From Bacteroidales bacterium (GTDB lineage: Bacteria; Bacteroidota; Bacteroidia; Bacteroidales; UBA12077), in NCBI GenBank assembly GCA_046545795.1, contig JBKGZD010000003.1, positions 1 through 47,770 of the forward strand: a DNA stretch of 47,770 nt, given 5' to 3'. This document shows positions 9,294 to 44,486 of the stretch, one piece after another. The number at the start of each line of letters is the position of its first letter. Position 1 is the first letter of the stretch. The notes under the pieces were generated by a model. The model was not told the origin of the DNA and made no database searches. It saw only the letters and a list, made by a program, of their open reading frames with translations. The position numbers and the translations under genes were made by a program.

Positions 9294-9392
9294 TTTATGA
9301 AACGTCCATGATAATAAACATGATTATCACAAAAGGAAATGTTTATTTTATCATGGTAAGTTCCATATGACCTTTAGAAATTAAATAATCAT
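9294..9392. repeat. Dispersed palindromic element, copy A (near-intact)
   Basis: Arms 9296-9321 and 9339-9367 are imperfect inverted repeats around a 17-bp spacer. About 90% identical to the reverse complement of 21431-21513. Confidence 0.9.
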
Positions 9393-9404
9393 CTTATGAA
9401 AATA

Positions 9405-9435
9405 AAAAATCACCAGCAAGGTGCCGGTGATTTTT
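9405..9435 (-). terminator. Intrinsic terminator after the betaine ABC operon
   Basis: AAAAATCACC-AGCAAGGTGCC-GGTGATTTTT stem-loop with A/T tracts on both sides, about 25 bp past the stop codon. Confidence 0.7.
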
Positions 9436-9461
9436 CAGATATAAGTGAGTTTTCTTCTGAA

Positions 9462-10349
9462 TTACTTCATCTCTTCAGGATACCATTCTTTCACAACATC
9501 TTTATTTTCTTCATACCATTTCTTTGCAGCTTCATATTCGTCATCCGATTTATCAACTGCTTCCATGAGCTCATAAAGATCATCTTCTTCTAAATTAAAG
9601 TTGCTAAAGAAATCAGCAAGTACAGGATGATCTTCTTTAAATCCTTTACGTGCAATAATTGCACAAACATCTTTTGGATAAATTTCTTCTGGATCTTCAA
9701 GATATTTCAGATCATAATCCGCCCACATTTGATGAGGCTTCCATCCTGTTACTACAACAGGTTCTTCTTTGTCATAATTACGCTTCAAAGAAGCCATCAT
9801 TGCAGATTCACTTGAAGTTACCTGTTTAAAATCAAGATCATATTCTTCAATAACTTTTTCGGTATTTCTGTGGATTCCTGCTCCACTACCAATACCGATA
9901 ATTTCACCGTCATAATCATCTACATGATCGTTCAGGTCTTCAATTGATTCGATATCAACATATTCAGGAACAACTAATCCAGTAGTACCATCACTAAAGG
10001 ATTCCCCTAACTTGTCAATATCGTCACCATATTTTTCCCAATAGTCTTCATGGGTATGCGGTAACCAGGCATCAAGCATCAGTTCTGCATCACCTTTAGC
10101 GATCGCTGCATAAATCGGACCTGGCTCAAGCGGAGTAATTTTTATATCATATCCTTTATCATCAAGAATTGCCTTAGCTAAATTTGTAAAAGCAATCCCC
10201 TCTGCCCAGTTAGGATATAAAATTTCAACCTGTTCTTTTTCTTTCTTGTCACCTTTTTTAGCTTCCTGTTTACATGCAGTAGTACCAAGTACTACAACAC
10301 TTACAAGAACTACCATTAAAGTTCTTAAATTCATTGTTAGTTTTTGCAT
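9462..10349 (-). CDS. proX: Glycine betaine ABC transporter substrate-binding lipoprotein (OpuAC/ProX type)
   Basis: Lipobox TTAC; NWAEG, DAWLP.TH, GLVVP.Y and GWKPH.MW motifs (Trp residues of the OpuAC-type binding cage). Confidence 0.9.
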   Translation of the reverse strand: MQKLTMNLRTLMVVLVSVVVLGTTACKQEAKKGDKKEKEQVEILYPNWAEGIAFTNLAKAILDDKGYDIKITPLEPGPIYAAIAKGDAELMLDAWLPHTHEDYWEKYGDDIDKLGESFSDGTTGLVVPEYVDIESIEDLNDHVDDYDGEIIGIGSGAGIHRNTEKVIEEYDLDFKQVTSSESAMMASLKRNYDKEEPVVVTGWKPHQMWADYDLKYLEDPEEIYPKDVCAIIARKGFKEDHPVLADFFSNFNLEEDDLYELMEAVDKSDDEYEAAKKWYEENKDVVKEWYPEEMK

Positions 10350-10403
10350 AGTTATTTCTCCTTTTTTTTGGTTAGTAAATTGGTCATATTATTTTTAAAA
10401 ATT

Positions 10404-11288
10404 TTATTCTTCTTCAGAGGACTGCGATCTAGAAACGCCTAAAGCTTGTGTCAGTCTATCCAGGAATATGGCAAGTATTACAATTCCCAAACCAGCTTCA
10501 AAACCCAGCGCCATATCTGCTTTAAGAATACCGCGGTAAACGGCCTGACCTAGTCCCCCTGCTCCTACCATCGAAGCAATAACCACCATTGATAGTGCAA
10601 GCATAATAACCTGGTTCACACCGGCTAATATTGTTGGCATTGCAAGTGGTATTTGTACTTTGTATAACAACTGCCTCTGTGTACATCCAAAAGCAAGTGA
10701 AGCTTCCACCACATCTTTCTGAACATTACGAATACCCAGATTAGTAAGTCGAACAGCCGGTGGCAGAGAAAACACAATTGTAGCAATTACTCCTGGTACA
10801 TTGCCTACACTAAAAAAGATAATAGCGGGAATAAGATAAACGAATGGAGGCAGTGTTTGCATAAAATCGAGAATCGGCCTGATAACTTGTTCCCCTGTAT
10901 CATGTCTTGAAGCATATATTCCCACTGGAATACCAATAACAAGAGCTATAAAAGCAGCAACAATAGTTAAAGCAATTGTTTGCATTGTTTCTTCCCAATA
11001 CCCCATAGCTAAAAGCAGCCATAAACCTAAAATAGTAAATATAAACATTCCTCCCCCAGCTTTCCAGCCAGATTTGGAAAAAGGTTTAAGTCCTTTAGAA
11101 TTCAGAGCATAAGAAATTATGGCAAAAATAATGATAACAACATATGGATTAGGGAACATTAAAGTATTTTCAAGTGCATCAACCATGGCATCAACACCTA
11201 CGGTAATTGCATCAAAAAAACCACCCGCACTGGCAGAAAGCCAATCAACACCTTGTTCCACCCATTTGCCTAATGGTATATTTATCAT
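10404..11288 (-). CDS. proW: Glycine betaine/proline ABC transporter permease (ProW/OpuAB)
   Basis: PILDFMQTLPPFVYLIP, RLTNLGIR, EAA-like loop VVEASLAFG, GVNQ.IMLALSMVVIASMVGAGGLG. Confidence 0.93.
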   Translation of the reverse strand: MINIPLGKWVEQGVDWLSASAGGFFDAITVGVDAMVDALENTLMFPNPYVVIIIFAIISYALNSKGLKPFSKSGWKAGGGMFIFTILGLWLLLAMGYWEETMQTIALTIVAAFIALVIGIPVGIYASRHDTGEQVIRPILDFMQTLPPFVYLIPAIIFFSVGNVPGVIATIVFSLPPAVRLTNLGIRNVQKDVVEASLAFGCTQRQLLYKVQIPLAMPTILAGVNQVIMLALSMVVIASMVGAGGLGQAVYRGILKADMALGFEAGLGIVILAIFLDRLTQALGVSRSQSSEEE

Positions 11289-12523
11289 AGGTCAATTCCT
11301 CCTTCTTTCTTTATTTGTTTAACTTCATTTCTTTCTATGCCTATCATTTCAGCTATCACGGAAGAATGAACAACGACTCCAATCAGTTTCCTGGTATCAT
11401 CTACAACCGCCAGGTTCAGGTCAGTGTCGAGGAATAGTGGCAGGAGTTCATTAATGGGTGTATCAGCAGTAACTGCTTTTACCTCTTCTTTTGTATACAT
11501 GTGTTCTTTAATATCTCTCATTCCCTTATCTTCCATCTCTTTCATATCGCTGTCTTTCACAAACCCCATAAATTTTCCATTCTCATCAATAACAGGCAAA
11601 GATGTAACCCCTGTATTGCTCATCTTTCTAATTGCAGCTCTTGGACCATCTTGTTTAATTCTCACACTTGCAGGATTTTTAAACATTATTGTGCCGGCGG
11701 TTACGATACCTCCTCTGTCAACATTCTCAACAAAGGCGCGTACATAATCATCTGCAGGATTTGTTAAAATTTCTTCCGGAGTTCCTACCTGAACGATGAA
11801 ACCATCTTTCATAATAGCAATTCTGTCACCCAGTTTAAGAGCCTCGTCAAGATCGTGGGTAATGAAAAGAATTGTTTTCTGCACTTTTTCCTGAAGCTGT
11901 AAAAGTTCATCCTGCATGTTATTTCGAATCAAGGGGTCAAGTGCACTGAAGGCCTCATCCATAAGCAGAATTTCAGGGTCTGTAGCTAAAGCTCTTGCCA
12001 GTCCTACTCTTTGTTGCATTCCACCGCTAAGCTGGCCGGTCATTTTTTCTTCATAACCTTCTAAACCAACTGTCTTAATGACATCATAAGCTTTATTTAT
12101 TCTTGTTTCCTGGTCTACTCCCTGAATTTCAAGGCCAAAAGCCACATTTGAGCTAACAGTTCTGTGAGGTAAAAGACCAAAGTGTTGAAATACCATGGTC
12201 ATCTTTTTCCTTCGGATATTGGTTCTTAAATCTTTGTCACTTGAATGAAGTATGTTGATTCCATCCACTTTAATATTTCCACTGGTAGGTTCAATCAACC
12301 TATTAAAGCATCTCAGTAAGGTTGACTTACCGCTTCCGGATAATCCCATCACCACAAATACTTCACCTTCCTCAATCTCAAGGCTGGCATTATTAACCCC
12401 TACAGTACATCCTGTCTTATGCAATATGTCGGTTTTGCTTTTACCTTGCTCAAGAAGTTTCTGTGCCTCTTTTACTCTCTTTCCAAAGATGACACTTAAA
12501 TTTTCAACTTGTATTTTACTCAT
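11285..12523 (-). CDS. proV: Glycine betaine/proline ABC transporter ATPase with CBS pair (ProV/OpuAA)
   Basis: Walker A GLSGSGKS, signature LSGGMQQR, LMDEAFSALDPLIR, THDLDEA and C-terminal CBS domains. Confidence 0.94.
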   Translation of the reverse strand: MSKIQVENLSVIFGKRVKEAQKLLEQGKSKTDILHKTGCTVGVNNASLEIEEGEVFVVMGLSGSGKSTLLRCFNRLIEPTSGNIKVDGINILHSSDKDLRTNIRRKKMTMVFQHFGLLPHRTVSSNVAFGLEIQGVDQETRINKAYDVIKTVGLEGYEEKMTGQLSGGMQQRVGLARALATDPEILLMDEAFSALDPLIRNNMQDELLQLQEKVQKTILFITHDLDEALKLGDRIAIMKDGFIVQVGTPEEILTNPADDYVRAFVENVDRGGIVTAGTIMFKNPASVRIKQDGPRAAIRKMSNTGVTSLPVIDENGKFMGFVKDSDMKEMEDKGMRDIKEHMYTKEEVKAVTADTPINELLPLFLDTDLNLAVVDDTRKLIGVVVHSSVIAEMIGIERNEVKQIKKEGGIDL

Positions 12524-12620
12524 AGGTAATTATTCTAATATGAACGATCATCAAATTTAGAGAAAATTTTTAATAATTAAAAAATAATTGGTATTGAAAT
12601 TATTATACTATCTATACTTC

Positions 12621-12660
12621 AAATGCTCCCCTACTGCATTTGGCAATTAGAGGAGCATTT
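12621..12660 (-). terminator. Intercistronic stem-loop between the porin gene and proV (partial terminator or mRNA stabiliser)
   Basis: AAATGCTCC...GGAGCATTT stem with further inner pairing, about 20 bp after the porin stop; no strong U-tract. Confidence 0.5.
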
Positions 12661-12678
12661 CAAAGATGTTATTTCTGT

Positions 12679-13980
12679 TTAAAAGTAATAACCTAAGTTG
12701 ATATTGAAACGAAGGTTCCAGTCCATATCATCTGTTGGTACTGGCGTGTTGATTTTTTCTGGTTCATCAGTGTAATAAGCAGCATCCTCATCCTCTCCCT
12801 GATAAAGTTGTCCTGCTCCAAAACCTGTTCCAAAATTATCCGTTAACCAGGCATGGTTTTTACCCATTGCAAAATCAACATAAGTATATACGCTACCTGC
12901 AGTTATCATAAAACCAGGAACTAACATATGTGAATCAGCAAAGTCATAGCTTTCCCCACCTAATTCAAGCTCACCATCTTTTGTCATTAGTGAATAATCA
13001 ATATATGGCTGAATATTGGTAATTGGTCCAATTTCAACAGGGATACTATAGGCAATTCCTGCTGAAAGTATATTTGCTCTTGCTGCTACACCATCACCAT
13101 AATATGGATCACCATAAGCTCCCATTTGGACTCTGTCGAGTGTTTCACCATCATCATTCTTGGCTGCATAATCGTAATTCACATATTGCAGTTTAAGGTT
13201 AAAATCGCTGAAATCTGAATTCATGTGAGCACCAATAGCATGTCCATATTCAGTTTCATCTAAATCTGAGTTATGGATTCCTTGCATTTGTCCTGAAAAA
13301 CCAATTTCAGTTCCTTCTGTTACCATATAGGCTATGCGCACATTGAATTGATTTAATTCACGAATTGAAGCTGGAGCATCTGATAATACACCATCCGCAT
13401 CTGGTATAATGTTATATGAATATGTTCCAGCGCCTGGACCACCAAATGATGCTTGACCATATGCAGGCCCTGTTGGCTCAGCTTGACGGAAATATGCAGC
13501 TTTAATGTTTAAATTGTCGCTTGCATTATAATCAAATTTAAATCCCATGTCGTAGTCATCCTCCAGTCCAACATAGTAAGGAGTAAGGAACCACCAACTG
13601 TGGGAGTTAAAGGTTAAATTACCAAAAGGTACCTGGGTTACCCCAAGTTGCAAGTTTAAGTCATCAGAAAAATCATAGCCTAAATAGCCGTGATGGATGA
13701 AATGCGTGTTGAAGGTTGGGTAGAAACGGTATTCAAAACTCAAATCAACTCCCCCCATAGTTCCATCTACGTTTAATCTCCAGGTATCCCACGTTGCATT
13801 GGTATTTAAGGTTGTGGGATCGGATTCGTACGAGGTGCTTAAAATATTGTAACGCATCGCTCCACCAAAAGTAAAACCATCTTCCTCTTCTTCCTCCTGC
13901 GCTAAAGAAGTAATAGGATTTAAGAAGAGTATAAGAACTAAAATTGAAAGTAAAGTCTTAAAAGAGTTTGTTGTTTTCAT
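12679..13980 (-). CDS. Putative outer-membrane beta-barrel (porin-like) protein, acidic
   Basis: Sec signal peptide (...ITSLA|QEEEEEDG), alternating amphipathic strands, C-terminal RFNINLGYYF beta-signal. Confidence 0.75.
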   Translation of the reverse strand: MKTTNSFKTLLSILVLILFLNPITSLAQEEEEEDGFTFGGAMRYNILSTSYESDPTTLNTNATWDTWRLNVDGTMGGVDLSFEYRFYPTFNTHFIHHGYLGYDFSDDLNLQLGVTQVPFGNLTFNSHSWWFLTPYYVGLEDDYDMGFKFDYNASDNLNIKAAYFRQAEPTGPAYGQASFGGPGAGTYSYNIIPDADGVLSDAPASIRELNQFNVRIAYMVTEGTEIGFSGQMQGIHNSDLDETEYGHAIGAHMNSDFSDFNLKLQYVNYDYAAKNDDGETLDRVQMGAYGDPYYGDGVAARANILSAGIAYSIPVEIGPITNIQPYIDYSLMTKDGELELGGESYDFADSHMLVPGFMITAGSVYTYVDFAMGKNHAWLTDNFGTGFGAGQLYQGEDEDAAYYTDEPEKINTPVPTDDMDWNLRFNINLGYYF

Positions 13981-14448
13981 AAGTTATAAATTTTAAAGGT
14001 TAGAATTTCAAAAAAAGTATTAAAATGTAAAAATTATATCTTCTGTACAAAACATATAATCAAAATCGATTTCAAATTTAACTAATATACAAAAAATTAA
14101 TTAACTCATTTTTAAAAGATTGTAATTTTCGAATTTACAAAATATAACTTTTATGTTAAATAATATTTGTTTCCCAAAAAGAAAAGCCACTCTTAAGGTC
14201 TTTACACAACATCGATATAATATAATTTCAAAATTAAGAGAAAATATGTTCTGTAAAACCTTCAGCATTTAGATACAAAAAAGACAAAATATTGTTCAAA
14301 GGAATAAAAACAGAAGAAGTTTAAACAGATTAAAGATATTTTTCTATTTCCAATAGCAACTCATTAGACAAATCATTCAGGAGGATATAGTGTAAAATAT
14401 AAATTACCAGGGAAGAATTATTAATAATCCCATTTCAAGGTACATATT

Positions 14449-14477
14449 AAAAAGAAAAACCCCGCGTTTGCGGGGTT
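14449..14477 (-). terminator. Intrinsic terminator of tRNA-Phe
   Basis: AACCCCGC-loop-GCGGGGTT stem followed on the minus strand by TTTCTTTT, immediately 3' of the tRNA. Confidence 0.8.
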
Positions 14478-14478
14478 G

Positions 14479-14551
<73 letters not shown>

Positions 14552-14570
14552 ATTTCTTAGTAAGCGATTG

Positions 14571-14600
14571 CAAAAGTAGTGAAAAAATTCATTCTACAAA
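14571..14600 (-). promoter_or_regulatory. Bacteroidota sigma-A promoter for tRNA-Phe
   Basis: TTTG-N18-TACTTTTG ending 19 bp before the mature tRNA. Confidence 0.7.
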
Positions 14601-14736
14601 ATTTTTTTCAATAAATCTTCTTTTTTGCTATTCATAGTGTTATTCGTATAATTATAACCAAATGTATATCAAAAAATTATTTTTGTTAAAACAATTTTTG
14701 CAGAAAAAAAATCAAAAGCAAAGTCACAAGTTTTTA

Positions 14737-14744
14737 TAATTTTG
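14737..14744 (+). promoter_or_regulatory. Possible -7 element (TAATTTTG) for the M16 peptidase/O-methyltransferase pair
   Basis: TAnnTTTG match, divergent from the tRNA promoter; AT-rich context makes a chance match possible. Confidence 0.35.
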
Positions 14745-14778
14745 CTCGATTTTAGCACTCAATTCAATATTTATTAAT

Positions 14779-14880
14779 ATGTTTATCTGAATTTTTCAAA
14801 GGTCATATGAAACCAACATTTAAACAAATAATTATTAAAATTTGTGGTTTTATAAATGATTTTTTACATGCAGGTATCGT
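14779..14880. repeat. Dispersed palindromic element, copy E (decayed)
   Basis: ATGTTTATCTGAATTTTTCAAAGGTCATATGAAAC matches the element tail. TTTGTG (spacer) and CATGCAGGTATCGT (vs CATGGACGTTTCAT) occur at the expected distances. Confidence 0.65.
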
Positions 14881-14916
14881 TCAATATATACAAATAAAAC
14901 CACAGGTTTTCATTTT

Positions 14917-16137: not shown

Positions 16138-16785
16138 ATGTTACAATTGCCAGAAGAACTTGAAAGTTACCTCATTAATTATTCTGATAAAGAAGATAAG
16201 CTTTTATACGAGTTATACCGGGAAACCAATAAGAAAATACTTCACCCCAGAATGTTAAGTGGATATCTCCAGGGGAAGCTTATAGAAATGATTACTAAAA
16301 TGGTAAATCCTGAAAATGTTCTGGAAATAGGCACATATACAGGTTACTCAGCCATTTGTATTGCAAGAGGCTTAAGTAACAAAGGGAAACTATATACAAT
16401 AGAAATTAATGATGAGCTTGAAGATTTCATAAGACACTATTTTCGAAAATCCGGACTGGGAGAGAAAATATCGCTTCACATTGGAGATGCCAGGAAGATA
16501 ATTGAAGATTTTCATTTTAACTTTGATTTGATATTTATTGACGGAGATAAAAGAGAATACCCGGAATATTTAATAAAATGCAAGAATAAGCTTAATGCCG
16601 GTGGTTTTATAATTGCAGACAATGTCTTTTGGGACGGAAAAGTTTTAAATGAAAAACAAAACTCTGATCAACATACAAAAGGGATTAAAAAATTTAATGA
16701 TTTAGTGAATAAAGATGAATCGTTAGAAAATATAATTCTTCCATTGAGAGACGGTTTAAACATTATAAGAAAAAAGCCAGTGTGA
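16138..16785 (+). CDS. Class I SAM-dependent O-methyltransferase (Methyltransf_3)
   Basis: LEIGTYTGYS, FIDGDK..Y, IIADNV.W.G, LP.RDG. Abuts the upstream stop (TAAATG). Confidence 0.92.
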   Translation: MLQLPEELESYLINYSDKEDKLLYELYRETNKKILHPRMLSGYLQGKLIEMITKMVNPENVLEIGTYTGYSAICIARGLSNKGKLYTIEINDELEDFIRHYFRKSGLGEKISLHIGDARKIIEDFHFNFDLIFIDGDKREYPEYLIKCKNKLNAGGFIIADNVFWDGKVLNEKQNSDQHTKGIKKFNDLVNKDESLENIILPLRDGLNIIRKKPV

Positions 16786-17013
16786 ATGAATGAAAAACCA
16801 GGGAATACTATTTCAGCTTTTCATTCATCCCGGAAAACCTTATAAAATTACGTTTTCACTTCCCTTTCCAGATTTTCTCTTCCGGTCTGAAGGTTTTATC
16901 CGCTATGTTAATTGTTCCTCTAAAATCTGTAAGATATAAAATGAGTACCAACTTTTGCCCCATTTTCAATAAGGACAAAAACCAACCACTAAAAAAGAGC
17001 TGCCTGGTTTAAT

Positions 17014-17568: not shown

Positions 17569-17589
17569 AACCAAAAAATTTTATTTGTT

Positions 17590-18795: not shown

Positions 18796-19980
18796 TCAAT
18801 AAACCTGAAGTACTAATCCTTTTAAATACTCTCCTTCAGGGTGGAAAATACTTATGGGATGATCTGGTGGCTGAGTCATTTGATGCAGAATTTTGACATT
18901 TCGACCAGCCGATGCACTGGCAGCAAAAACCATTTTCCTGAAATTCTCTGTACTAACCACTTGTGAACAAGAAAATGTAAAAAGTACTCCTCCGCTTCTA
19001 ATTTTTTCTATAGCCAGCCTGTTTAACCTCTTGTATCCTTGTAAAGCATTGGATAGCACATTATTATGTTTTGCAAAGGCCGGAGGATCAAGTACAATCA
19101 GATCATATACTTTTTCCATCTCTTTTAAATAAGAAAAAGCATCTGCAGTAATCCCTCTGTGATTATCGCCTGGATAATTTAATTTTACATTATGATCAGC
19201 CAAATCAATTGCTTTTGATGAACTATCAACCGTGTCTACAGATTCACAGTTTCCTGCAATAGCATATACTGAAAAACCACCTGTATATCCAAATAAATTC
19301 AATACATTTTTATCCTCCGCATATTTTTTCAGCAAAAGCCTGTTTTCACGCTGATCGATATAAAACCCGGTCTTCTGCCCTTCTTCCCAATTGATCTTAA
19401 ATTGAAGTTCGTGTTCTTTCACATTATTCTCTGCTCCCTCGCCATAAAGGTAATAATTGTCTTTTTCTATATCAGCTTTATAAGGAAGGGTAGAAACACT
19501 TTTATTAAATATTCCAGTTAATTTCTTGTCCAGAATTTCCTTAAGTCCTTCTGCTATTAATTTAATGTTACGGTACATTCCAACTGAATGAAGCTGAACA
19601 ACAGCAAAACCATTATAATAATCAACAATTAAGCCGGGTAATCCATCTCCCTCAGCATTAATTAACCTAAAAACACTGGTTGTAGAACTATCCAACAGAC
19701 CAATCATTTTGCGCAGATCACATGCCTTTTCTATTTTTGATTTCCAGAATGTATCATCTATGGGAATATCCTGAAAGGTAAGTATCCGAACAGCAATCGT
19801 TCCCATTTGATAATGTCCCTTACCAAGAAATTCATCTTTATTGTCATATACACTAACAACATCTCCTTCCACTGGTGTATCGCCTTTAATCTTTTTTATA
19901 GCCCCGGAAAACACCCATGGATGGTATCTTCGTAACGATTGGTCTTTCCCTGATTTAAGAATAACTCGTATTTCTTTCAT
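18796..19980 (-). CDS. rlmI: RlmI/RlmK-family 23S rRNA methyltransferase (PUA plus SAM domain)
   Basis: HPWVFSGAI, EGDGLPGLIVD, GQKTGFYIDQRENR, VLNLF.YTGGFS, LDPPAF, TFSCS. True start taken as ATG 19980 (MKEIRV). Confidence 0.88.
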   Translation of the reverse strand: MKEIRVILKSGKDQSLRRYHPWVFSGAIKKIKGDTPVEGDVVSVYDNKDEFLGKGHYQMGTIAVRILTFQDIPIDDTFWKSKIEKACDLRKMIGLLDSSTTSVFRLINAEGDGLPGLIVDYYNGFAVVQLHSVGMYRNIKLIAEGLKEILDKKLTGIFNKSVSTLPYKADIEKDNYYLYGEGAENNVKEHELQFKINWEEGQKTGFYIDQRENRLLLKKYAEDKNVLNLFGYTGGFSVYAIAGNCESVDTVDSSSKAIDLADHNVKLNYPGDNHRGITADAFSYLKEMEKVYDLIVLDPPAFAKHNNVLSNALQGYKRLNRLAIEKIRSGGVLFTFSCSQVVSTENFRKMVFAASASAGRNVKILHQMTQPPDHPISIFHPEGEYLKGLVLQVY

Positions 19981-20080
19981 GTGGTTATTTTGAATTTTTT
20001 TAAAGTCATATGGAATTCGCAAGTAAAAAATAAAAATTACGGCTTGTATATCAGATGATTATTTTTTACATGTTTGTTTA
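19981..20080. repeat. Dispersed palindromic element, copy D (decayed; fills the whole intergenic gap)
   Basis: GTGGTTATTTTGAATTTTTTTAAAGTCATATGGAA matches the tail and arm. AAAATAAAAATT, TTGTATA and ATGATTATTTTTTACATG align collinearly with copy B. Confidence 0.65.
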
Positions 20081-20082
20081 TT

Positions 20083-20664
20083 TTAATTACTCTCTGTTAA
20101 TTTATTATAAAGTTCATAGCAAATCCAGGCATCAGTTGCTGCATATTTAAGCTGGGCAGGGGTTAAAATATTATTTTCCCAGTTTGAAAGTCGCTGAGAT
20201 TTAGAAATTCTACCCTCTAAAACAATAGCAGATAATTTTTTCAGGCCTGTATTCTGAATGTCCAAATCCTGTGCTAAATCCTGGAGGTCAATAAAATTTC
20301 CAGGTTTAAAAGGTTTGGCTTTTTTTAGGTCCTTTAGATCATCCTTAATAGCTACTCCTATTTTCAGAATTGAATTATCTGACAGAATATTTACTAACTC
20401 GTCAGGGAAACCAATATGATTAAGTCTGAATAAAAATGCTTTATCGTTTGTTGCAAGTTGCAATAAGGCAGTTTTGTTCACTTTTCCTTTCTTAAAGCTG
20501 GGTTTTGCTTCTGTATCGAATCCCAGCTTATCATACTTTTTGATTAAAGGGATGGCAATATCCAACTTTTTTTGGTTGTCTATCAAAAAAATATCTCCGT
20601 CAAATACTTTTCGGGGTAATTTTTTAATTTCTTCGTTTGTAATTGATTTTTTAAATTTCATCAT
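20083..20664 (-). CDS. 3'-5' exonuclease (DEDDy; RNase D/WRN-like)
   Basis: GFDTE, LLQLA, K.GV.I.DD, LSNWE...L...Q..YAATDA. Start at 20664 or 20661; the longer ORF-track N-terminus is an overlap artefact. Confidence 0.9.
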   Translation of the reverse strand: MMKFKKSITNEEIKKLPRKVFDGDIFLIDNQKKLDIAIPLIKKYDKLGFDTEAKPSFKKGKVNKTALLQLATNDKAFLFRLNHIGFPDELVNILSDNSILKIGVAIKDDLKDLKKAKPFKPGNFIDLQDLAQDLDIQNTGLKKLSAIVLEGRISKSQRLSNWENNILTPAQLKYAATDAWICYELYNKLTESN

Positions 20665-21271
20665 CCCTCTCTTTTGACTGTCTTTTCTTTTCATCAAAAA
20701 GCCAATTACGCTGCTCATCCGTATTATTTTCCCCGGAATCCTCCTGTTCATCCAGTTGTTCATCACTATAATACAAACGATGTAAAATCCGTAATGCATT
20801 CAGTAGCTTGATACCCCAATATTCCTGGAAATTATATATCAATTCCCAGAGGGAGCTCATCATTAAATCTTCATTCCCCAATCCATATGCAACGATAAAA
20901 TTTTTCAGGTCCTGGTATATATCTGCAAAATTATCAGACAGGCTCATAATGCTAACTTCTCCCTCTTCCTTTGAAACTGGATCAAAAACATCTAAATATT
21001 CATCGTGATACCCTAATTTCATTTTTACTTTGTTGTATATATCATTCCACTCCATCTCAGTTACAAACTTCTCAGCAGGTTCAAATCCAGTATCTTCGGG
21101 GTGAGGAATTTGAGAAGCATGGAAATAAAGTGATGATAAAAGCCGGAGAGCTTTATTTATAAAAGCAACCTTATCAAAATTTTGAGTGTTTTCTGCAAAA
21201 GTACAGTAATTTCCAGCTATACTCACAAATTCTGTAATATTTTCATTTTCCAGAAACTTATTAGCATCCAT
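20651..21271 (-). CDS. DUF5063 family protein
   Basis: EFV..A..YC.F.E, FVTE..W, D.YLDVF, S.SD..ADIYQDLKNF, F..YWG..L.NALR.LH. Confidence 0.82.
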   Translation of the reverse strand: MDANKFLENENITEFVSIAGNYCTFAENTQNFDKVAFINKALRLLSSLYFHASQIPHPEDTGFEPAEKFVTEMEWNDIYNKVKMKLGYHDEYLDVFDPVSKEEGEVSIMSLSDNFADIYQDLKNFIVAYGLGNEDLMMSSLWELIYNFQEYWGIKLLNALRILHRLYYSDEQLDEQEDSGENNTDEQRNWLFDEKKRQSKERDDEI

Positions 21272-21300: not shown

Positions 21301-21417
21301 AGAAAATTTCCGCATTATAACTGACGGTTCACCGCAGCGGAAGTCTTTTTGTTATATTGCTGAAAGGCGAGGCTAAAGCTGAGGAAGCAAAAGATGCTTC
21401 TCTAATATCTATTCATA

Positions 21418-21513
21418 ATGGTTATTTTTTAAGGTCAGATGGAACTTACCATGATAAAATAAACATTGTCTTTTGTGATAATCATGTTTCTTTTATCATA
21501 GACGTTTCATAAA
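21418..21513. repeat. Dispersed palindromic element, copy B (near-intact, inverted relative to A)
   Basis: AAGGTCAGATGGAACTTACCATGATAAAATAAACAT-TGTCTTTTGTGATAATC-ATGTTTCTTTTATCATAGACGTTTCATAAA; lies 6 bp from the recQ stop. Confidence 0.9.
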
Positions 21514-21519
21514 TATAAA

Positions 21520-23427
21520 CTATTTATTCCATGTATAGAGATCACCATCCGCTTTCACAATTTTCTTATGTTCAAGTAACCAGTTGAAAACTTTCAATAC
21601 TTTCTCTTTGTCATAGTCTACTTGTTCTATAAGTTGCTCAATGGTAACCTGGGAGTCCAGTAAATTCCCTTTTAACTGTTTTAAAATGCTATCAAACTGA
21701 TATGAACTTAGCTGGAGTTCATTTTTCTGGAGGCAAACATCACAATGTCCACACCTGTATGCATCTTTCTCGCCAAAATATTTAAGAAGCTGAATACTTC
21801 TGCATATTCTGTCATTCTCAGCATATTCAAGTACTGCATTTAGTTTGTTAACATATTGTTTCTTACGGTCTTTATAATTTTCAGGAGAAATATATAAATT
21901 CTTTCTTTTAAGCCTTTCTTCTGTATAAACAATCATAGGTGTTTTCTTATACGGGATATAATCTATAATTTTAAAATATTTAAGCCGATTCAATATTTTG
22001 TATATTGTCTCAACCTCAGCATTAAGTTTTTTGGCAATTGCCTTTTCTTCTATCTTAACATAATTGGTAAAAACGCCAGTATAGGAGCGTAGTAAAAGTT
22101 TTATAAAGATGTCATATCGTTCGTTAGAAAGCTGGAAATTATAAAGGTCATCCCGGGAAACTATAAAATGTATTTTCGATTTATTAGACAATTCATCTGT
22201 TAACTCTATGTATCCTTCCTTTTGAAGGAATTTAAGACTGCTGTATACATTCATCAGGTTAAACTTATAATTCGATATGAAATTGTAAATGTTAAAATCA
22301 TATGCTTGATTTTTACCACCCTCATAAGGCACGTGAAGATAATTCCCCAGTGCTTCATATACATCTTTAATTTCATTTATTGGCGGGAAATTTTGTTCTT
22401 TTCGTTGTTCAGCTTTCACCCTGTCAGTGTTATTATAAAGCAATACAGCAAAAGCTCTTTTTTCGTCCCTGCCAGCTCTCCCAGCCTCCTGGAAATAAGC
22501 TTCAAGGGTGTCAGGTAAATCAAAATGTATTACAAATCTAACATCCGGCTTATCAATACCCATCCCAAAAGCATTAGTAGCCACCATTATTTTTATATGT
22601 CCCTTTTGCCATTCATCTTGTTTTTTATTTCGTATATCGGGGTCAAGACCTGCATGGTAAAAATCGCTTGAAAAACCCGTTTTTGCCAATAGCTCCGAAA
22701 TCTTTTCAGTTCTGGCACGACTTCGTGTATAAACAATACCAGTACCCTGAATCTTTTTAAGACTCTGCGTAATATATCCTATCTTGTTTTCCACATTTCT
22801 CACTAAGTAAACCAGGTTTTTCCGTTCAAAGCTTTTTTTAAGCACATTATTCTTGCGGAATTTTAATTTTTCCTGGATATCTTTCACAACATCAGGAGTA
22901 GCAGTTGCCGTAAGTGCAAGAAAGGGCGGGTTGTCTTTCAGATGTTCTCTTAAGTTTGCAATATTGAGATAAGAAGGGCGAAAATCATATCCCCATTGGG
23001 AAATACAATGAGACTCATCAATAGCAACAAAATTAACGGTCATTTTTTCAACCCTTGCTTTAAATAAGTCGGTAGCGAGTCTCTCCGGTGAAAGGTATAA
23101 AAATTTATAACCACCAAAAATACAATTATCCAGCGCTAAATCAATTTCATGCTTAGACATTCCTGAATGAACAGCAATCGCTTTGATACCCCGTCTGTTC
23201 AAATTATCAACCTGGTCTCTCATCAGGGCAATTAAAGGAGTAATAACCAAACAAATACCTTCCTTCGCTAAGGCCGGAACCTGGAAAGTAATAGATTTAC
23301 CACCCCCGGTTGGCATTAAGGCTAAGGTATCATTCCCTTCCATCACAGAGTGAATAATCTCCTCCTGCAAAGGTCGAAAACCATCATACCCCCAATATTT
23401 AACCAATATTTGCCTGTAAGTATCCAA
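21520..23427 (-). CDS. recQ: RecQ family ATP-dependent DNA helicase
   Basis: MPTGGGKS, DESHCISQWG.DFRP, ALTATA, ATNAFGMGIDK, QEAGRAGRD, Zn-binding CR..YFGE...CG.CD.C. TTG start. Confidence 0.93.
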   Translation of the reverse strand: MDTYRQILVKYWGYDGFRPLQEEIIHSVMEGNDTLALMPTGGGKSITFQVPALAKEGICLVITPLIALMRDQVDNLNRRGIKAIAVHSGMSKHEIDLALDNCIFGGYKFLYLSPERLATDLFKARVEKMTVNFVAIDESHCISQWGYDFRPSYLNIANLREHLKDNPPFLALTATATPDVVKDIQEKLKFRKNNVLKKSFERKNLVYLVRNVENKIGYITQSLKKIQGTGIVYTRSRARTEKISELLAKTGFSSDFYHAGLDPDIRNKKQDEWQKGHIKIMVATNAFGMGIDKPDVRFVIHFDLPDTLEAYFQEAGRAGRDEKRAFAVLLYNNTDRVKAEQRKEQNFPPINEIKDVYEALGNYLHVPYEGGKNQAYDFNIYNFISNYKFNLMNVYSSLKFLQKEGYIELTDELSNKSKIHFIVSRDDLYNFQLSNERYDIFIKLLLRSYTGVFTNYVKIEEKAIAKKLNAEVETIYKILNRLKYFKIIDYIPYKKTPMIVYTEERLKRKNLYISPENYKDRKKQYVNKLNAVLEYAENDRICRSIQLLKYFGEKDAYRCGHCDVCLQKNELQLSSYQFDSILKQLKGNLLDSQVTIEQLIEQVDYDKEKVLKVFNWLLEHKKIVKADGDLYTWNK

Positions 23428-38110: not shown

Positions 38111-38145
38111 TAGAGTTTTGTTATCAAAATTAAAGTTTTGTGCAC

Positions 38146-39165: not shown

Positions 39166-39237
39166 TGATATTTCTTATAAATAAAACTACATAGCTTACT
39201 CCATCCAGCATAGTAATCGGCATAACATATAAAACTG

Positions 39238-40371
39238 TCAGCTTATTACTTTTTCAAAGACATTGTGTAAGGTTTTACTAATTCTATAACGATCTTCATC
39301 AGTCATACCAGAACCAGAGGGTAAACACAGACCCTTGTTAAAAATATTTTCAGCAACTCCATTTAAATACGCGGGGTAATCTTTAAAGATTGGCTGAAGA
39401 TGCATTGGCTTCCATATATGGCGGGCCTCAATATTTGCATTCTCCAGCTCTAATCTTACCATATTTGGGTTAAGTTGCCCCGTATCAAAAAGCATAGTAG
39501 CTATCCAATAGTTAGAAAAAGCCCCCTCCGGTTCGCACAGGAAATTTATAAAATCATATTTACCAAACTCTTCCAAATAAAATTCAAAATTTTTCCTGCG
39601 TTGTTTAATTCTTTGATCCAGTGTTTCCACTTGCCCTCTCCCAATTCCAGCCAGTATATTGCTCATCCGGTAATTATAACCAATCTCCGAATGCTGATAA
39701 TAAGGTACATCATCTCTCGCCTGTGTACTTAAATACAACGTCCTCTCAGCAATTTCCTTTTCTGCTGTCACCAAGGCTCCTCCGCTCGAAGTAGTAATTA
39801 TTTTATTTCCATTAAATGATAAAACTCCAATATCTCCAAATGTTCCCAATACTCTATCCTGGTATCTGCTGCCCAATGCTTCCGCTGCATCTTCAATCAC
39901 AGGTATTTCATATTTTTGAGCAATATGCTTTATATCGTTAATTTTTGCCGGCATCCCATATAAATGAACCAGGATTAATGCTTTTGGTTTCTTCCCTTTT
40001 TGGATTCTGTCAGCTATAACCTCTTCCAGAAGCTGTGGATCCATATTCCAAGTTTCTTTTTCACTGTCCACAAATATTGGAATTGCTGATTGATAAATAA
40101 TAGGATTCACACTTGCACAAAATGTCAAAGAAGGTACTATAACCTCATCTCCGGTGCCTACCCCAAGGTTAATAAGTGCCAGATGAAGGGCTGCGGTACC
40201 ACTGCTTAACGCCACTGCATGCCCGATATCCAGGTATTGCTCTATTGCATATTCAAATTGATCAACATTTTCTCCCAGTGGAGCTACCCAGTTCTTATCA
40301 AATGCATCCTTCACATATTCTAGTTCAGAACCTGCCATGTGAGGAGGAGATAAATAGATTCGTTTGGCCAT
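39238..40371 (-). CDS. DegT/DnrJ/EryC1/StrS sugar aminotransferase (PglE/EpsN-like)
   Basis: IYLSPPHM, SSGTAALHLAL, IEDAAEALG, SFNGNKIITTS.GG, GYNYRMSN, CLPSGS. Confidence 0.93.
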   Translation of the reverse strand: MAKRIYLSPPHMAGSELEYVKDAFDKNWVAPLGENVDQFEYAIEQYLDIGHAVALSSGTAALHLALINLGVGTGDEVIVPSLTFCASVNPIIYQSAIPIFVDSEKETWNMDPQLLEEVIADRIQKGKKPKALILVHLYGMPAKINDIKHIAQKYEIPVIEDAAEALGSRYQDRVLGTFGDIGVLSFNGNKIITTSSGGALVTAEKEIAERTLYLSTQARDDVPYYQHSEIGYNYRMSNILAGIGRGQVETLDQRIKQRRKNFEFYLEEFGKYDFINFLCEPEGAFSNYWIATMLFDTGQLNPNMVRLELENANIEARHIWKPMHLQPIFKDYPAYLNGVAENIFNKGLCLPSGSGMTDEDRYRISKTLHNVFEKVIS

Positions 40372-40970
40372 TACCTTCTCTTTATAAAAATTGCCTTAAT
40401 TGTCATCACAATAATAGCAAAATCAGTTGCTAAATTTTGATTCTGTTGGTATTTTTTATCTAGTTTAACTTTTTGTGGAATTGTTTTCTGTAAATAAACT
40501 TGCTCAGGATCACTTACATCTTCGTATATTTTGCTCTCATATAAAAAATATAATGAAGAAAATGAAGTAATGCCGGGTTTCATTGTATAATATCCCGGCA
40601 TATGCCTGAGGTAATAATTCTTATAATCAGGAACATCAGGCCGGGGCCCTACAAAACTCATTTCTCCTGTTAGGACATTAATTAACTGGGGTATTTCATC
40701 CAACTTATATTTTCTCAGCCAGCACCCGGCTTTTGTTATTCTTGGATCTCTATCTCCTACTGTAATACTTGACGTTTCTGAATCGGGATACATGGTTCGG
40801 AATTTATATATACGAAAATTCCTCTGATGCCTGCCCACCCTTATTCCACGGTAAAAAACAGATCCTCGTGAATCCATTAAAATAACAAGTGTTATAACAA
40901 GAAATAAAGGTGATAATACTATCAAACCAATCACACTGAAAATAATATCAAATATTCTCTTAACGACCAT
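40371..40970 (-). CDS. Small polyprenyl-phosphate sugar phosphotransferase (Bac_transf; PglC-like)
   Basis: KRIFDI, F.IYKFRTM, LRKYKLDEIPQL.NVL.GEMSFVGPRP, KPGIT. Confidence 0.92.
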   Translation of the reverse strand: MVVKRIFDIIFSVIGLIVLSPLFLVITLVILMDSRGSVFYRGIRVGRHQRNFRIYKFRTMYPDSETSSITVGDRDPRITKAGCWLRKYKLDEIPQLINVLTGEMSFVGPRPDVPDYKNYYLRHMPGYYTMKPGITSFSSLYFLYESKIYEDVSDPEQVYLQKTIPQKVKLDKKYQQNQNLATDFAIIVMTIKAIFIKRR

Positions 40971-41021
40971 TAAAAACCCTGTTTAATAAATGCTTTTTGC
41001 TATTTTCCATTTTGATTAATA

Positions 41022-42143
41022 CTATATTTTCTTCGAATAAGCTTCCTGGGTAGCTTTTTTATAGATTCCCAGCATCTTGTTTACGCTTTCTTCAAGGCTA
41101 TAAAAATCTTCTACCTGCTTTCTTGCATTCCTGCCCATGCTTTCACGGAAAGTTTTATTAATTATAAGCTTCTCCAATGCATCTGCTGCTGCCCTGGCGT
41201 TTTTCCCGGGAACAACAAAGCCTGTTTCACCATCCCTGACAATTTCTTTAAAGCCCGGCACATCTGATACTACCGAAGGTAAGCCACAAGCACCTGCTTC
41301 CAGTACAGAAACTCCAAAACTTTCATCCATTACAGAAAGTGCTGAAAAAATATCCATCTTGTTCAGATAATACGGAATATTCCCAGGTTCTTGATATCCG
41401 GCAAATTCTACATGATCAGACAGACCAAGTTTCTCAGCCAACCTCTCAAGATTTCTCCTCTCCGGCCCATCTCCTACGATCAGCAAGTGTAAATCCATTC
41501 CCTCATTTCTCTTCAGGACAATATTAAATGCCCTTATTAAAATGTCAACCCCATATATTTTTTTTAAAAGTTTGACCGTACCAATCCTTACTTTATGTCC
41601 CGTATCAGTTTTCCCTGGTTTAAAGAAATCAGTATCTACTCCAAAGGGAGTAACCAAAACATCCTTATGTGAATATTGGTGAATATTTTCTACCATTGCT
41701 TTACTGGTTGATAAAACCCAATCGGCTTTTTTCAATGAATATTTTATCAACCACTTGTGTAAAAATGATTTTTCAGGAATCCTGTAGATATCAGAGCCCC
41801 AAACAGACAAAACAAATGGATGGAAACCAGTTAAGGCTCCAAGCAAACCGTAACTACTGGCATAGTGAGAATGAATAACATCAGGGTGAAAATTTCTAAT
41901 TGCTTTTCTTATTGCCGATAGTAATTTTAAATATCTCACCTTTGACAAACTTCCCGGTTTTCTCGAAACAGATTTACTGGTAAAACCAATATTTACTGTT
42001 TGTAATAAAGCAGGATTATTAAAAGCTTTCTCACCGGCAGGATTTAAACTAACAAGACATATTTCCACACCCTTTTCAGTGAGGGCATTGACCCACTTGA
42101 TTGTATGTGAACTTACCGGATTTGATAGCAACAAAATCTTCAT
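41022..42143 (-). CDS. GT4 family glycosyltransferase
   Basis: HSHYASSYG, SVWGSDI, ESFGVSVLEA.ACGLP.VVS. Confidence 0.9.
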   Translation of the reverse strand: MKILLLSNPVSSHTIKWVNALTEKGVEICLVSLNPAGEKAFNNPALLQTVNIGFTSKSVSRKPGSLSKVRYLKLLSAIRKAIRNFHPDVIHSHYASSYGLLGALTGFHPFVLSVWGSDIYRIPEKSFLHKWLIKYSLKKADWVLSTSKAMVENIHQYSHKDVLVTPFGVDTDFFKPGKTDTGHKVRIGTVKLLKKIYGVDILIRAFNIVLKRNEGMDLHLLIVGDGPERRNLERLAEKLGLSDHVEFAGYQEPGNIPYYLNKMDIFSALSVMDESFGVSVLEAGACGLPSVVSDVPGFKEIVRDGETGFVVPGKNARAAADALEKLIINKTFRESMGRNARKQVEDFYSLEESVNKMLGIYKKATQEAYSKKI

Positions 42144-43273
42144 GAATTTATCAATTGTATCAATAAAGTTGACCAGTCGAAAATAAAATGTTTTTTTCTT
42201 TCAATGCATTTCTGACGGATATTTTCCAGCTGTTTACCGGTTATAATTTTCTCTATTTTTGATTTAAGACTCAGAACATCAGGCTCAAATAACAATTCCG
42301 GATATTTAAGGACTTCAGGAATTCCCCCCCTGTTGGAACCTATCACAGGGATTTGCAAAAACAGCCCTTCTAAAATTACATTTGGACATGAATCAGCAAA
42401 AGAAGGCACAACAAGTAGATCCGCATGTGAAATAAATTCAAGCGGATTCTGCTGATATCCCAAAAAATCGATATTGTCAAAAACATTATATTTTTGCTCG
42501 TAAATTCTCCTGTACTTCCCATCACCCAGTAGAGACAGTCTAACAGAGAAGCCCTCCTGCAGCAATTGCTTAACCGCTTCAAGGATTACCTCTCCCCCTT
42601 TACGCCGTGTATCCATAGAACCGGAAAAAACCAAATGTAATTCATCTTTAGGCTCAACAGGTTTTTGTCTGATTAAGTGCCTGGAAGACGTCATCCACGA
42701 GGCATTAACATTATTGGACAATATTAGTATTTTCTTTTCAATAGAATCGCTTATGTTTTTATGCCTTGAAAGCAAATTATATTTGTCATAGTCACTCTGA
42801 AGAATGATTGTAGCGACACGTTTAACCACAATTCTTTCAACAAATTTATAGAAAAAGAGCCTGAGATTGAAAAGCTTATCCTTTTTTTCACTGTAGTATG
42901 AGTTATATTCCAGCAAATCCTCCCTCAAAAGCAATACTATTCTTCGAAATCCTGCTAAAACTCCCTGAATACCGTAAGGAATCGAAAACAAGATTGTCCT
43001 GTCCACGGAAAGCTTTTTTGCTTTACGGAAAGTCTTCATATTCATCAGTAAATTCAGCAATGAGTCAGGAACAAATCTCGAATGATAAGTACGTATAGAC
43101 AATACCCGACATTTATTCTTTGATGGAATGTTTATATTTTTGGGAGCAATAAGATAAACCTTATTCCCAGTCTCCAGTAGAGACTCAAGCAGCTCATAAA
43201 ATCTCTTTGTTCCACCTGTAACAGGTGTTTCAATGTAGTCCCCTGCTGTATATAACAAATAAGTCTTTGACAT
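42140..43273 (-). CDS. GT4 family glycosyltransferase
   Basis: GG near the N-terminus, RRKG, DLLVVPS..DSCPNVILE, GS.RGGIPE. Confidence 0.82.
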   Translation of the reverse strand: MSKTYLLYTAGDYIETPVTGGTKRFYELLESLLETGNKVYLIAPKNINIPSKNKCRVLSIRTYHSRFVPDSLLNLLMNMKTFRKAKKLSVDRTILFSIPYGIQGVLAGFRRIVLLLREDLLEYNSYYSEKKDKLFNLRLFFYKFVERIVVKRVATIILQSDYDKYNLLSRHKNISDSIEKKILILSNNVNASWMTSSRHLIRQKPVEPKDELHLVFSGSMDTRRKGGEVILEAVKQLLQEGFSVRLSLLGDGKYRRIYEQKYNVFDNIDFLGYQQNPLEFISHADLLVVPSFADSCPNVILEGLFLQIPVIGSNRGGIPEVLKYPELLFEPDVLSLKSKIEKIITGKQLENIRQKCIERKKHFIFDWSTLLIQLINS

Positions 43274-43343
43274 AATAATATTTTATTCAACAAACAACCT
43301 GAGTGATAAAGTATCAGAGTTATATTTAACTTCGCACAATTGG

Positions 43344-44432
43344 TCAGGAGAATAAACCATCTATAACCTCCTCCCACTTTTCAGCAATTGTAATTATATT
43401 GTTGGTTTTCATCACCTCAGTCGCATTTTTGCCTATTTCCTTTCGCCTGCCTGGGTTTTCTGCTAAATCATCAATAGCACTTGCTAATTGACTAACATTA
43501 CCCGGTTCAACCAAAATCCCGTTTATATTATTTTTTATCAATTCCTGCGGACCAAAATCACAATTAAAACTAATACATGGCAGTCCACTTCCCATTGCTT
43601 CTGCAAGAGCATTGGGATACCCTTCATAACGAGAACTCAGTACAAATATAGATGCTCTTGAATACAAACCCGTTATATCTTTTTGTATTCCAGGCAAATG
43701 TATCTTTGAAGTCAGTTTATATTCTGTAATTTTACGCTCAAGGTTCACGCGTTCATTTCCTTCTCCGGCTATAATTAACTGCCAGTTATTTTTTGCACGG
43801 CTTTTTGCAAATGCTTCAAGCAGTAAGTCAAAACCTTTGGCGTATTCCAGTCTTCCAACAGCTAAAATTAGTTTTTCCTTACTTACTTTTTCAGATGGCG
43901 TCATATTATTTAAAGGATTAGGAATAATTTCAATCTTTGACTTTGGCAGGAATGAAAAAAAACGGCTCACCCTGTGCGTTTGTAATACAACCTTATCAGC
44001 AAACCTATACAATAAACGTGAAGCAATTTTCCATCTGGCTGGAATTCTGTATTGAAATGGATTCGTTCTTACAGAAATAATCACAGGGATATCAGTTAAA
44101 AGGCAAGCAAGTACCGTCAGGACATTAACATCAGTAATAAAACCAATAGCAATATCTGCTTTGATTCTGACAAGTTTATTTCGTAATTTGACCACTCTTT
44201 CTATGGTATTCAATAAGCCTGAAAAAAAATGTTTTGAACCTCGGTTATAAATTACCTGATGCTTTTCAATTTTATCATCCAGGGAGTAAAAATCCTTTTT
44301 ATCATCAAGATATACAACGGAAACCCTATAACCACGATTTACAAAATAATTGGCAAGCATTGATATAACCCTTTCAGCACCACCGGCTCTGAGGTAACCG
44401 GTAATAAATGCGATATGTTTGTCTTGCCTCAT
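43344..44432 (-). CDS. GT4 family glycosyltransferase (AmsD/PglH-J-like)
   Basis: GGAERV, IPNP, VGRL...KGFD.L, FVLSSRYEGYPNALAEAM..GLP. Confidence 0.9.
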   Translation of the reverse strand: MRQDKHIAFITGYLRAGGAERVISMLANYFVNRGYRVSVVYLDDKKDFYSLDDKIEKHQVIYNRGSKHFFSGLLNTIERVVKLRNKLVRIKADIAIGFITDVNVLTVLACLLTDIPVIISVRTNPFQYRIPARWKIASRLLYRFADKVVLQTHRVSRFFSFLPKSKIEIIPNPLNNMTPSEKVSKEKLILAVGRLEYAKGFDLLLEAFAKSRAKNNWQLIIAGEGNERVNLERKITEYKLTSKIHLPGIQKDITGLYSRASIFVLSSRYEGYPNALAEAMGSGLPCISFNCDFGPQELIKNNINGILVEPGNVSQLASAIDDLAENPGRRKEIGKNATEVMKTNNIITIAEKWEEVIDGLFS

Positions 44433-44486
44433 ATGGTTATTTTGACTTTTTCAAAGGTCATATAGAGCTTATTAAGGACGTTTCAT
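44433..44486. repeat. Dispersed palindromic element, copy C (internally deleted)
   Basis: ATGGTTATTTTGACTTTTTCAAAGGTCATATAGAGCTTATTAAGGACGTTTCAT keeps the tail and both outer arm ends; the centre is missing. Confidence 0.75.

Follow-up and report, generated by a model that had tools for sequence, protein, structure and literature searches.

Repeat copies in the window

Six copies of a small gene-less repeat lie in the 47,770-nucleotide (nt) stretch of DNA analysed here, which is contig C3 (GenBank JBKGZD010000003.1, assembly GCA_046545795.1) of an uncultured Bacteroidales bacterium and is referred to below as the window. The genome to which it belongs, G000, is a metagenome-assembled genome (MAG) of 2.68 Mb in draft form (251 contigs, 36% G+C, 94.6% complete), and the records of its relatives, together with the labels of sequencing runs, indicate hypersaline lakes and microbial mats as the habitat. 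The repeat, with a unit length of approximately 105 nt, is a small non-autonomous bacterial element with an unusual target, the start codon, and a guide-like architecture. Copies were located with an nhmmer profile built from an alignment of 46 G000 copies, themselves found by BLAST with copy A, and the E-values below derive from a search of the window with this profile.

4620..4668, minus strand: sixth copy, tail-only or short form (E 1.6e-4)
9294..9403, minus strand: copy A, full length (match 9297-9401, E 1.7e-27); its long hairpin spans 9296-9367 and its central pairing segment 9361-9372, and the plus strand carries its ATGAAA end (9396-9401)
14774..14880, plus strand: copy E, probably old and heavily decayed (only the tail, 14777-14814, scores, E 0.0056)
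19975..20081, plus strand: copy D, decayed full-length copy (match 19975-20063, E 3.4e-7)
21411..21511, plus strand: copy B, full length with a shortened tail (match 21419-21510, E 4.2e-23)
44427..44486, plus strand: copy C, short form (match 44429-44471, E 3.8e-6; the register matches that of other short forms)

A first-pass annotation of the window had listed five of these, of which A and B are real, C and D are significant and E is marginal; the copy at 4620-4668 had been missed. Its description of A and B as approximately 90% identical and inverted is borne out by a repeat search, in which the arms 9313-9381 and 21424-21492 are 91% complementary over 69 nt, and the same search recovered a tail shared by C, D and E. 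Its account of D and E as decayed agrees with the profile scores, which for E are confined to the tail part. Copy E, with 68% identity to the tail of copy D, falls below the listing threshold (E<=0.01) of the genome-wide profile search and is a probable old and strongly decayed member of the family.

The genes beside the copies are varied. Copy D stands exactly at the start codon (CAT 19978-19980) of an RlmI-like methyltransferase gene (18796-19980, minus strand), between this gene and an upstream 3'-5' exonuclease-domain gene, and CAT 44430-44432 within copy C is the start codon of a GT4 glycosyltransferase gene (43344-44432, minus strand; Pfam). The tail end therefore meets a gene ATG in C and D, and not in A, B, E or the copy at 4620-4668, whose ATGAAA opens just seven codons. 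Copy B lies 9 nt past the stop of a RecQ-like helicase gene (21520-23427) and ~140 nt upstream of a DUF5063 gene (20651-21271); copy A faces the terminator of a convergent gene, and no gene begins there. Between copy A and the stop of the OpuAC gene, a G+C-rich hairpin flanked on both sides by T/A runs (9404-9440) has the look of a two-way terminator and is conserved in all six of the six congeners aligned.

Anatomy and copy classes

Read on the strand antisense to the adjacent gene, the unit consists of TTTCAT, an AT-rich stretch of ~25 nt whose length and sequence vary among species, the central segment C-N-N-ATGGAAC, an inner hairpin, and GTTTCAT(A). The inner hairpin comprises an 18-bp perfect stem and a 16-17-nt loop with a core kept across species, and is set off from the central segment by a small internal loop (TTA opposite AC); the anatomy proposed at first pass is correct, in that a tail on one side accompanies ~28-nt arms separated by a spacer of 16-17 nt. 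Across the 46 aligned copies conservation starts abruptly at TTTCAT and stops at GTTTCAT(A), and rightward of the right hexamer the old upstream region continues (for example at C109:884 and on C140). In approximately one quarter of copies the right hexamer instead runs into another tail, as a tandem or repeated insertion in which one hexamer is shared, examples being the tandem neighbours on contigs C99, C12, C26, C115 and C13.

A BLAST search of G000 with copy A returned dozens of matches of 105-113 nt at 80-92% identity, and the profile search of the whole genome (E<=0.01) gave 137 matches that collapse to 114 non-overlapping loci, a lower bound because several copies are cut by contig ends; the suspicion raised at first pass that the element could be abundant genome-wide is thus upheld. 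These loci comprise 55 full-length copies, 48 short copies retaining the left end only, and 11 other fragments, the short copies splitting approximately into 23 palindrome-less forms and 25 otherwise truncated. The palindrome-less forms, copy C among them, have lost the inner palindrome but retain the tail, the centre and the right end, and their breakpoints fall at CATG or ATGGA direct repeats. Such forms are read as hairpin-stimulated deletions between short direct repeats, independent transposition of the short forms being the alternative.

Two structural variants were seen among relatives. In one locus of the sister-species genome G013 (L052, G013:C45:24860-25130) an extra G+C-rich mini-hairpin of ~21 nt lies within the tail, and a variant specific to a second sister-species genome, G007 (L062, L065, L068, L071), keeps the long hairpin with a different left part containing a short G+C-rich stem (…GAAGGCA…GCCAAAGG…).

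The position of the boundaries bears on whether the 73-nt palindrome could by itself be the transposon, as a classical MITE (miniature inverted-repeat transposable element) with 28-nt terminal inverted repeats and a TA duplication, mobilised by an IS630/Tc1-type or other DDE transposase, with the tail as its preferred landing site. The palindrome is indeed bounded by TA...TA, its inner part, including the loop, is flipped relative to the tail in three of the 46 G000 copies and in the relative's locus L079, and a few copies of relatives (the four G007 loci named above) carry unrelated sequence in place of the tail. However, tail and palindrome hold a fixed relative orientation in 43 of the 46 copies, the 28-nt arms are internal to a conserved unit that begins at TTTCAT, and empty sites, described below, lack the tail as well as the palindrome. 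The flanking repeat is constant rather than site-variable, with CAC on the left and CAT on the right in eight copies; moreover, the genome holds no DDE_3 or rve match, a single unrelated DDE_Tnp_1 gene, and no half copy beside a transposase. A MITE of this kind is accordingly considered very unlikely. The asymmetric tail had already been remarked upon as atypical of an element bounded by terminal inverted repeats, and rightly so, since on the left the element really begins ~35 nt beyond the palindrome, with the TTTCAT that recurs at the right end.

Distribution and mobility

The family is present in 10 of 15 congeneric genomes, several of them with at least 20 matches, and outside the genus only two weak matches were obtained among 25 genomes. 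An exact-pattern scan of 185,579 species genomes returned 29 loci in seven assemblies, all of them Bacteroidales or Bacteroidetes MAGs; the family is confined to one genus of uncultured Bacteroidales. It matches no Rfam entry, a search of the window at gathering scores giving only a tRNA, and no description of a similar element with such a target was found in the open-access literature searched.

Comparison of filled and empty loci drew on the sister-species genomes G007 and G013 and on contigs from other metagenome runs (X4, X5 and X6, from two studies). Copy A is missing from contigs of all three runs, in which position 9293 is joined to 9404 with 12 other letters between; the flanks of the empty site in X4 differ from the window at 2 letters in 1631, and copies B and D are present in X5 and X6. 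As these near-identical strains lack copy A, its presence or absence reflects a recent event. The A site is likewise empty in G007 and five other congeners, and the syntenic stretches G007:C2 and G013:C7 carry no copy at any of the six window loci. At the D locus of G007 the stop of the upstream gene overlaps the downstream ATG (ATGA), and G000 has ~100 nt inserted there at TTTCAT; this site is empty in G013 too. Of the 95 G000 loci that could be tested, 34 lie between flanks that are both collinear within the 1.21 Mb of G007 examined, and every one of these sites is empty in that genome. The repeats are a mobile family. The suggestion of a lineage-specific non-autonomous mobile unit, made from the window at first pass, is thus substantiated by high copy number, restriction to a genus, empty orthologous sites and the presence/absence polymorphism of copy A. 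A further search for closer strains among Joint Genome Institute (JGI) metagenome contigs gave no loci with a first pattern and 10 with a second, all from more distant organisms.

No target-site duplication of variable sequence was seen: the flanking direct repeat is always (T)TTCAT.

Target site

The T-T-C-A-T columns at the left end agree in at least 90% of the 46 aligned copies, gene-less sites included. TTTCAT is ATGAAA reversed, and in 66 of 103 copies (35 of 55 full, 31 of 48 short) it constitutes a real start codon, scored where the tail end lies at the ATG of an open reading frame (ORF) with 100 codons or more; the other 37 precede no gene. By comparison, 22% of non-genic ATGAA sites are gene starts in a crude gene set (p 9e-20). 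It is therefore misleading to say, as the first-pass annotation did, that both orientations relative to transcription are represented, as the tail end abuts an ATG so frequently, and the orientation of the element at its target is constant.

Orthologous junctions in G007, compared over 1.21 Mb of that genome, carry CAT at the aligned position in 14 of 15 resolvable cases and TTCAT in 10 of 15, and 10 of 14 G007 orthologues start with ATGAA (second codon AA*), against a background of 30% (p 0.002), indicating that the target site usually pre-exists. Because the element sits at (T)TCAT and ends in the same hexamer, two thirds of copies stand exactly at a Met-Lys/Asn start codon; upon insertion the gene still starts with ATGAA, now preceded by an A-rich leader that it did not have before, while its former upstream DNA ends up ~100 nt further off. 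Copies of a subfamily with CAC in place of CAT abut ORFs in 3 of 16 cases, versus 8 of 13 for CAT copies, so that the link with start codons follows from the letters of the target and not from a function.

In more distant relatives, several copies (L167, L170, L172 and L176 on metagenome contigs, and L064 in G005) adjoin one and the same conserved ~35-nt sequence, with which a frame of 22-28 codons begins (MKPxSxNLHNKDM...); the sequence occurs twice in tandem in L170 and is absent from G000. This is probably a second repeat family that provides an ATGAAA target.

Insertion at start codons, and the splitting by copy D of a gene pair that overlaps in ATGA in G007, invite comparison with a coupled mini-ORF of the MIRU (mycobacterial interspersed repetitive unit) type, as does a 10-codon ORF in the CATATG subfamily that ends in a TGA overlapping the ATG of the gene. 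An ORF of this sort was found in 27 of 100 copies examined, 21 of them with the 10-codon form, and the CATAAG subfamily mostly has none; it is thus a by-product of the letters, and a mini-ORF as the purpose of the element is hardly credible.

A portable promoter was also considered and rejected. The tail of the commonest G000 subfamily nearly matches the Bacteroidetes -7 box; the CATAAG subfamily and the copies of relatives lack it.

Internal pairing and decay

The central ATGGAA segment can pair either with the left TTTCAT-N-N-G or with the right end, the latter extending the long hairpin. These pairings are mutually exclusive, and each is represented among the best folds of single copies. 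Across 85 unique full copies (51 from G000 and 34 from relatives), pair 7-37 of the left-end/centre helix is TA in 67 and CG in 15, and pair 9-35 is TA in 36 and AT in 30. Covariation of the palindrome arms, put forward at first pass as a check, was found as double changes in the inner stem, where pair 53-93 is TA in 50 and CG in 25, and pair 61-85 is AT in 50 and TA in 30. In a structure-blind MAFFT alignment of 31 copies, 92% of cells are paired, versus 27-50% with a slid partner, 31 cells are changed on both sides against 14.4 expected, and the covariation score was reached by none of 500 shuffles; for the outer plus inner hairpin, 93% of cells are paired. All of these figures are inflated by the relatedness of the copies. 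The variants comprise CATATG, CATAAG/CTTATG and CACAAG/CTTGTG; CATCTG/CAGATG and CATACG/CGTATG were each seen once.

The two ends differ in how they follow the centre. Where the centre carries G, C stands opposite it on the left in 15 of 15 copies, and on the right C is found in 6 and U in 8. The letter that precedes TTCAT is T in 54 and A in 21 of the 85 copies on the left and nearly fixed as T on the right. Such asymmetries would be expected of a left hexamer newly selected as target DNA and a right hexamer that the element brings along.

Within G000 the inner stem shows 91 one-sided breaks versus 4 compensated changes, whereas among relatives the figures are 20 one-sided and 14 compensated for the inner stem, and 8 and 30, respectively, for the left/centre helix. 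Changes that are uncompensated within a genome and often compensated between species imply that constraint acts on the copies that spread and not on each locus; copies decay neutrally after insertion. The first-pass alternative of a long dyad protein-binding site, here taken as that of a regulon, finds no support, given this decay through uncompensated stem mutations and neighbour genes that are unrelated.

The same pairing might instead describe a cis-regulatory leader RNA, in which the centre would sequester the start codon or pair with an upstream decoy ATGAAAC, a translational switch spread by duplication. Two mutually exclusive helices, one covering the start codon and both among the best folds, a covarying start-codon hexamer, and a fixed orientation before genes are all in keeping with such a switch. 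It is countered, however, by the 37 of 103 copies with no following gene, by the functionally unrelated downstream genes, by the uncompensated decay within the genome, and by the CAC subfamily, which pairs and yet seldom abuts ORFs. Wobble positions become A-C mismatches on the sense strand, the -7 promoter box is not kept across subfamilies, and a permissive Rfam search of 9250-9450 gave a best E of 0.19, with all matches far below gathering scores. A leader RNA is for these reasons considered very unlikely, and the element probably does not act as a regulatory switch.

Proposed movement and the search for an enzyme

The evidence points to what is probably a small, gene-less and selfish family of non-autonomous mobile DNA that inserts in one orientation at ATGAA. 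How it moves is less certain. Pairing-guided movement of a single strand, proposed by analogy, is a serious possibility that falls somewhat short of being probable. The element would move as a folded single strand, in which the central segment, as guide, would bind either the left TTTCAT-N-N-G or the right GTTTCATA by base pairing and thereby define the two positions of cleavage or joining. Where the guide has G instead of A, the left hexamer has CAC instead of CAT. The mobilising enzyme would act in trans. No host role would be needed, the element being selfish DNA that may be tolerated because a usable start region is rebuilt upon insertion.

Several observations weigh against this proposal. 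The empty A allele has six unrelated letters at the predicted hexamer junction, so that 104 nt replace 6 nt, and G007 has a TTTCAT-like sequence at this site; the empty allele could represent a scar left by excision or, alternatively, speak against simple paste-in. TTCAT is lacking at 5 of the 15 G007 junctions, and four G007 gene starts have AGG, AGC, CGA or GTA as second codon where G000 has AAA, overwriting and drift being indistinguishable for these four given a divergence of ~22%. The covarying variants are few and are common to related copies. As DNA, the two strands are nearly alike in how well they fold, the surplus of G-T relative to A-C pairs (340 versus 81) rests on four fixed positions, and orientation relative to local GC skew (45 of 62, p 0.17) shows no bias beyond that of genes. 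There is one proper hairpin, against two at the ends of IS200/IS605 elements. Finally, no candidate enzyme was found in G000 or by phyletic pattern in congeners: PF01797 (Y1 HUH) is absent from the copy-rich genomes G000, G005, G007 and G012 and present in G001, G004 and G009, which have no copies, and across 16 congeners PF01797, PF04986 and PF01548 (Y1, Y2/IS91 and IS110) do not track the element. The absence of an enzyme is itself weak evidence, as the genomes are MAGs.

Other searches for the enzyme were equally negative. An autonomous transposase, RAYT or recombinase gene between the same ends, which the first-pass annotation had thought worth looking for, was not found in G000. There was no match in this genome to PF00239, PF00665, PF13358 or PF04754 (resolvase, rve, DDE_3 and Rpn), other transposase families not having been searched. 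The sole DDE transposase found (DDE_Tnp_1, G000:C198:2279-3748) is interrupted by a stop codon, which leaves frames of 217 and 271 amino acids (aa), with the contig ending just beyond, and the ends of this insertion sequence are unrelated to those of the element. Half copies in G000 flank no transposase, the multi-copy ORFs of G000 are four housekeeping pairs with no transposase among them, and the element pairs that flank genes on C22 and C109 enclose housekeeping genes only. Two identical tandem genes of 130 aa (G000:C113:5528-6383), putatively of the GxxExxY/PD-(D/E)XK-like type, have no element copies within 1.5 kb.

The sole site-specific recombinases detected in G000 are two Xer-like tyrosine recombinases of ~300 aa, and these lend some support to a site-specific module moved by a tyrosine recombinase, either Xer-like or an integron-type integrase acting on a folded hairpin, with the hexamer as crossover core. 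Parallels would be the attC cassettes of integrons, CTX-type elements that exploit Xer, and transposons that integrate at a fixed heptamer. The same hexamer does stand on both sides and is shared between tandem copies, and the succession of outer stem, small internal loop and inner stem loosely resembles the layout of an attC fold. Against this, the left and right hexamers of the CAC subfamily differ (C in 15 of 15 on the left, U in 8 on the right), which is awkward for homology-dependent exchange, the copies are dispersed, with few tandems and no integron-like array seen, and the empty A allele is without the core. Movement by a tyrosine recombinase is consequently doubtful.

Mimicry of Xer/dif sites was examined separately on account of the presumed likeness of the hexamer motifs to Xer-binding arms; regular-expression scans and a genus-wide pattern search gave sporadic, chance or in-gene hits and no conserved dif-like site, and the idea was dropped. 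The hairpin loop may also resemble rolling-circle nick sites, a likeness that is given no weight here.

A stronger form of the pairing-guided proposal, put forward as a tentative and on balance unlikely one, is that the family represents an undescribed Bacteroidales transposition system, in which a single-hairpin DNA would choose its insertion site by pairing between guide and target hexamer, would be retargetable (as in the ATG- and GTG-type subfamilies) and would depend on an enzyme that belongs to none of the known Y1, Y2, IS110, serine or common DDE families.

Implications and neighbouring observations

Among small intergenic repeats, which are common, a defined target is rare, and a preference for start codons is rarer still. 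About 100 insertions in the 2.7-Mb genome studied here are due to a single family, and at ~60 genes the sequence directly upstream of the start codon is now that of the element. Operon structure is affected, as by copy D, which split a gene pair that overlaps in the sister species; gene-start annotation is affected as well, and so is MAG assembly, because contigs break at copies. If target choice by pairing is true, in genomes where no known HUH transposase accompanies the element, an unrecognised mobilising enzyme and a naturally reprogrammable insertion system would follow. Were the family indeed an undescribed system, its natural target ATGAAA would be the commonest start context of the host, and the element a built-in generator of new 5' leaders.

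Other features of the window are separate from the family. A 143-nt intergenic stretch between O-methyltransferase and HD-domain genes (16792-16934) is replaced by 5 other letters in X5 and X6; it is unique in the genome and not a repeat. A second intergenic stretch of 99-100 nt (14129-14228), also unique in G000, has 100 different letters in X5 and X6. Four head-to-tail repeats of 21 nt (ACGAAGAA...-type units) occupy 1458-1546, with a fifth copy 668 nt on (2189-2214), at the end of a CheR-PAS gene and the start of the histidine-kinase gene that follows.

Comparison with known systems

MIRUs are described as short mobile repeats whose insertion at a start codon does the gene little damage (PMC12548453), and landing on start codons is shared with the present family. 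In contrast, the ORF of MIRUs is coupled at -4 spacing, where such an ORF occurs in 27 of 100 copies here, and the two families belong to different phyla. Neither a long hairpin nor guide-like pairing is, to our knowledge, a feature of MIRUs.

REP and REPIN sequences share with this family the character of abundant extragenic palindromes, considered to be moved in trans by a single-copy enzyme (PMC3733652). In REPs the stem measures 8-9 bp and the loop 4-5 nt (PMC3733652). A further likeness is to the CGTC-tagged REPs, as CGTC lies just 5' of the inner stem on the sense strand here. The present element differs from REPs, which are 20-40-nt palindromes with a GTAG or CGTC head, in its size, in its stems of 18+8 bp and loop of 16-17 nt, in the lack of a RAYT (no PF01797 match) and of head-to-head dimers, and in the location of its copies at gene starts rather than downstream of genes.

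The ends of IS200/IS605 elements bear two hairpins, with a guide 5' of the hairpin foot that pairs over ~4 bp. These elements and their gene-less derivatives, the PATEs, resemble the present family in a single orientation, a fixed short target and the lack of a variable duplication (the empty A allele being the exception); a subterminal hairpin is a further likeness to IS200/IS605, and pairing of the ends or target with an internal segment, here seen as covariation, would be another. The family departs from them in having one hairpin and a single guide for both ends, in pairing over 8-12 bp rather than ~4, in a right end that repeats the target hexamer, and in the lack of a Y1 HUH transposase in copy-rich genomes. 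For IS608, the passages cited describe cleavage sites recognised by internal base pairing and a target that is altered by a change of the guide (PMC3201880, PMC5934647). By this analogy, the logic of the element would be closest to that of IS200/IS605 elements and their gene-less derivatives.

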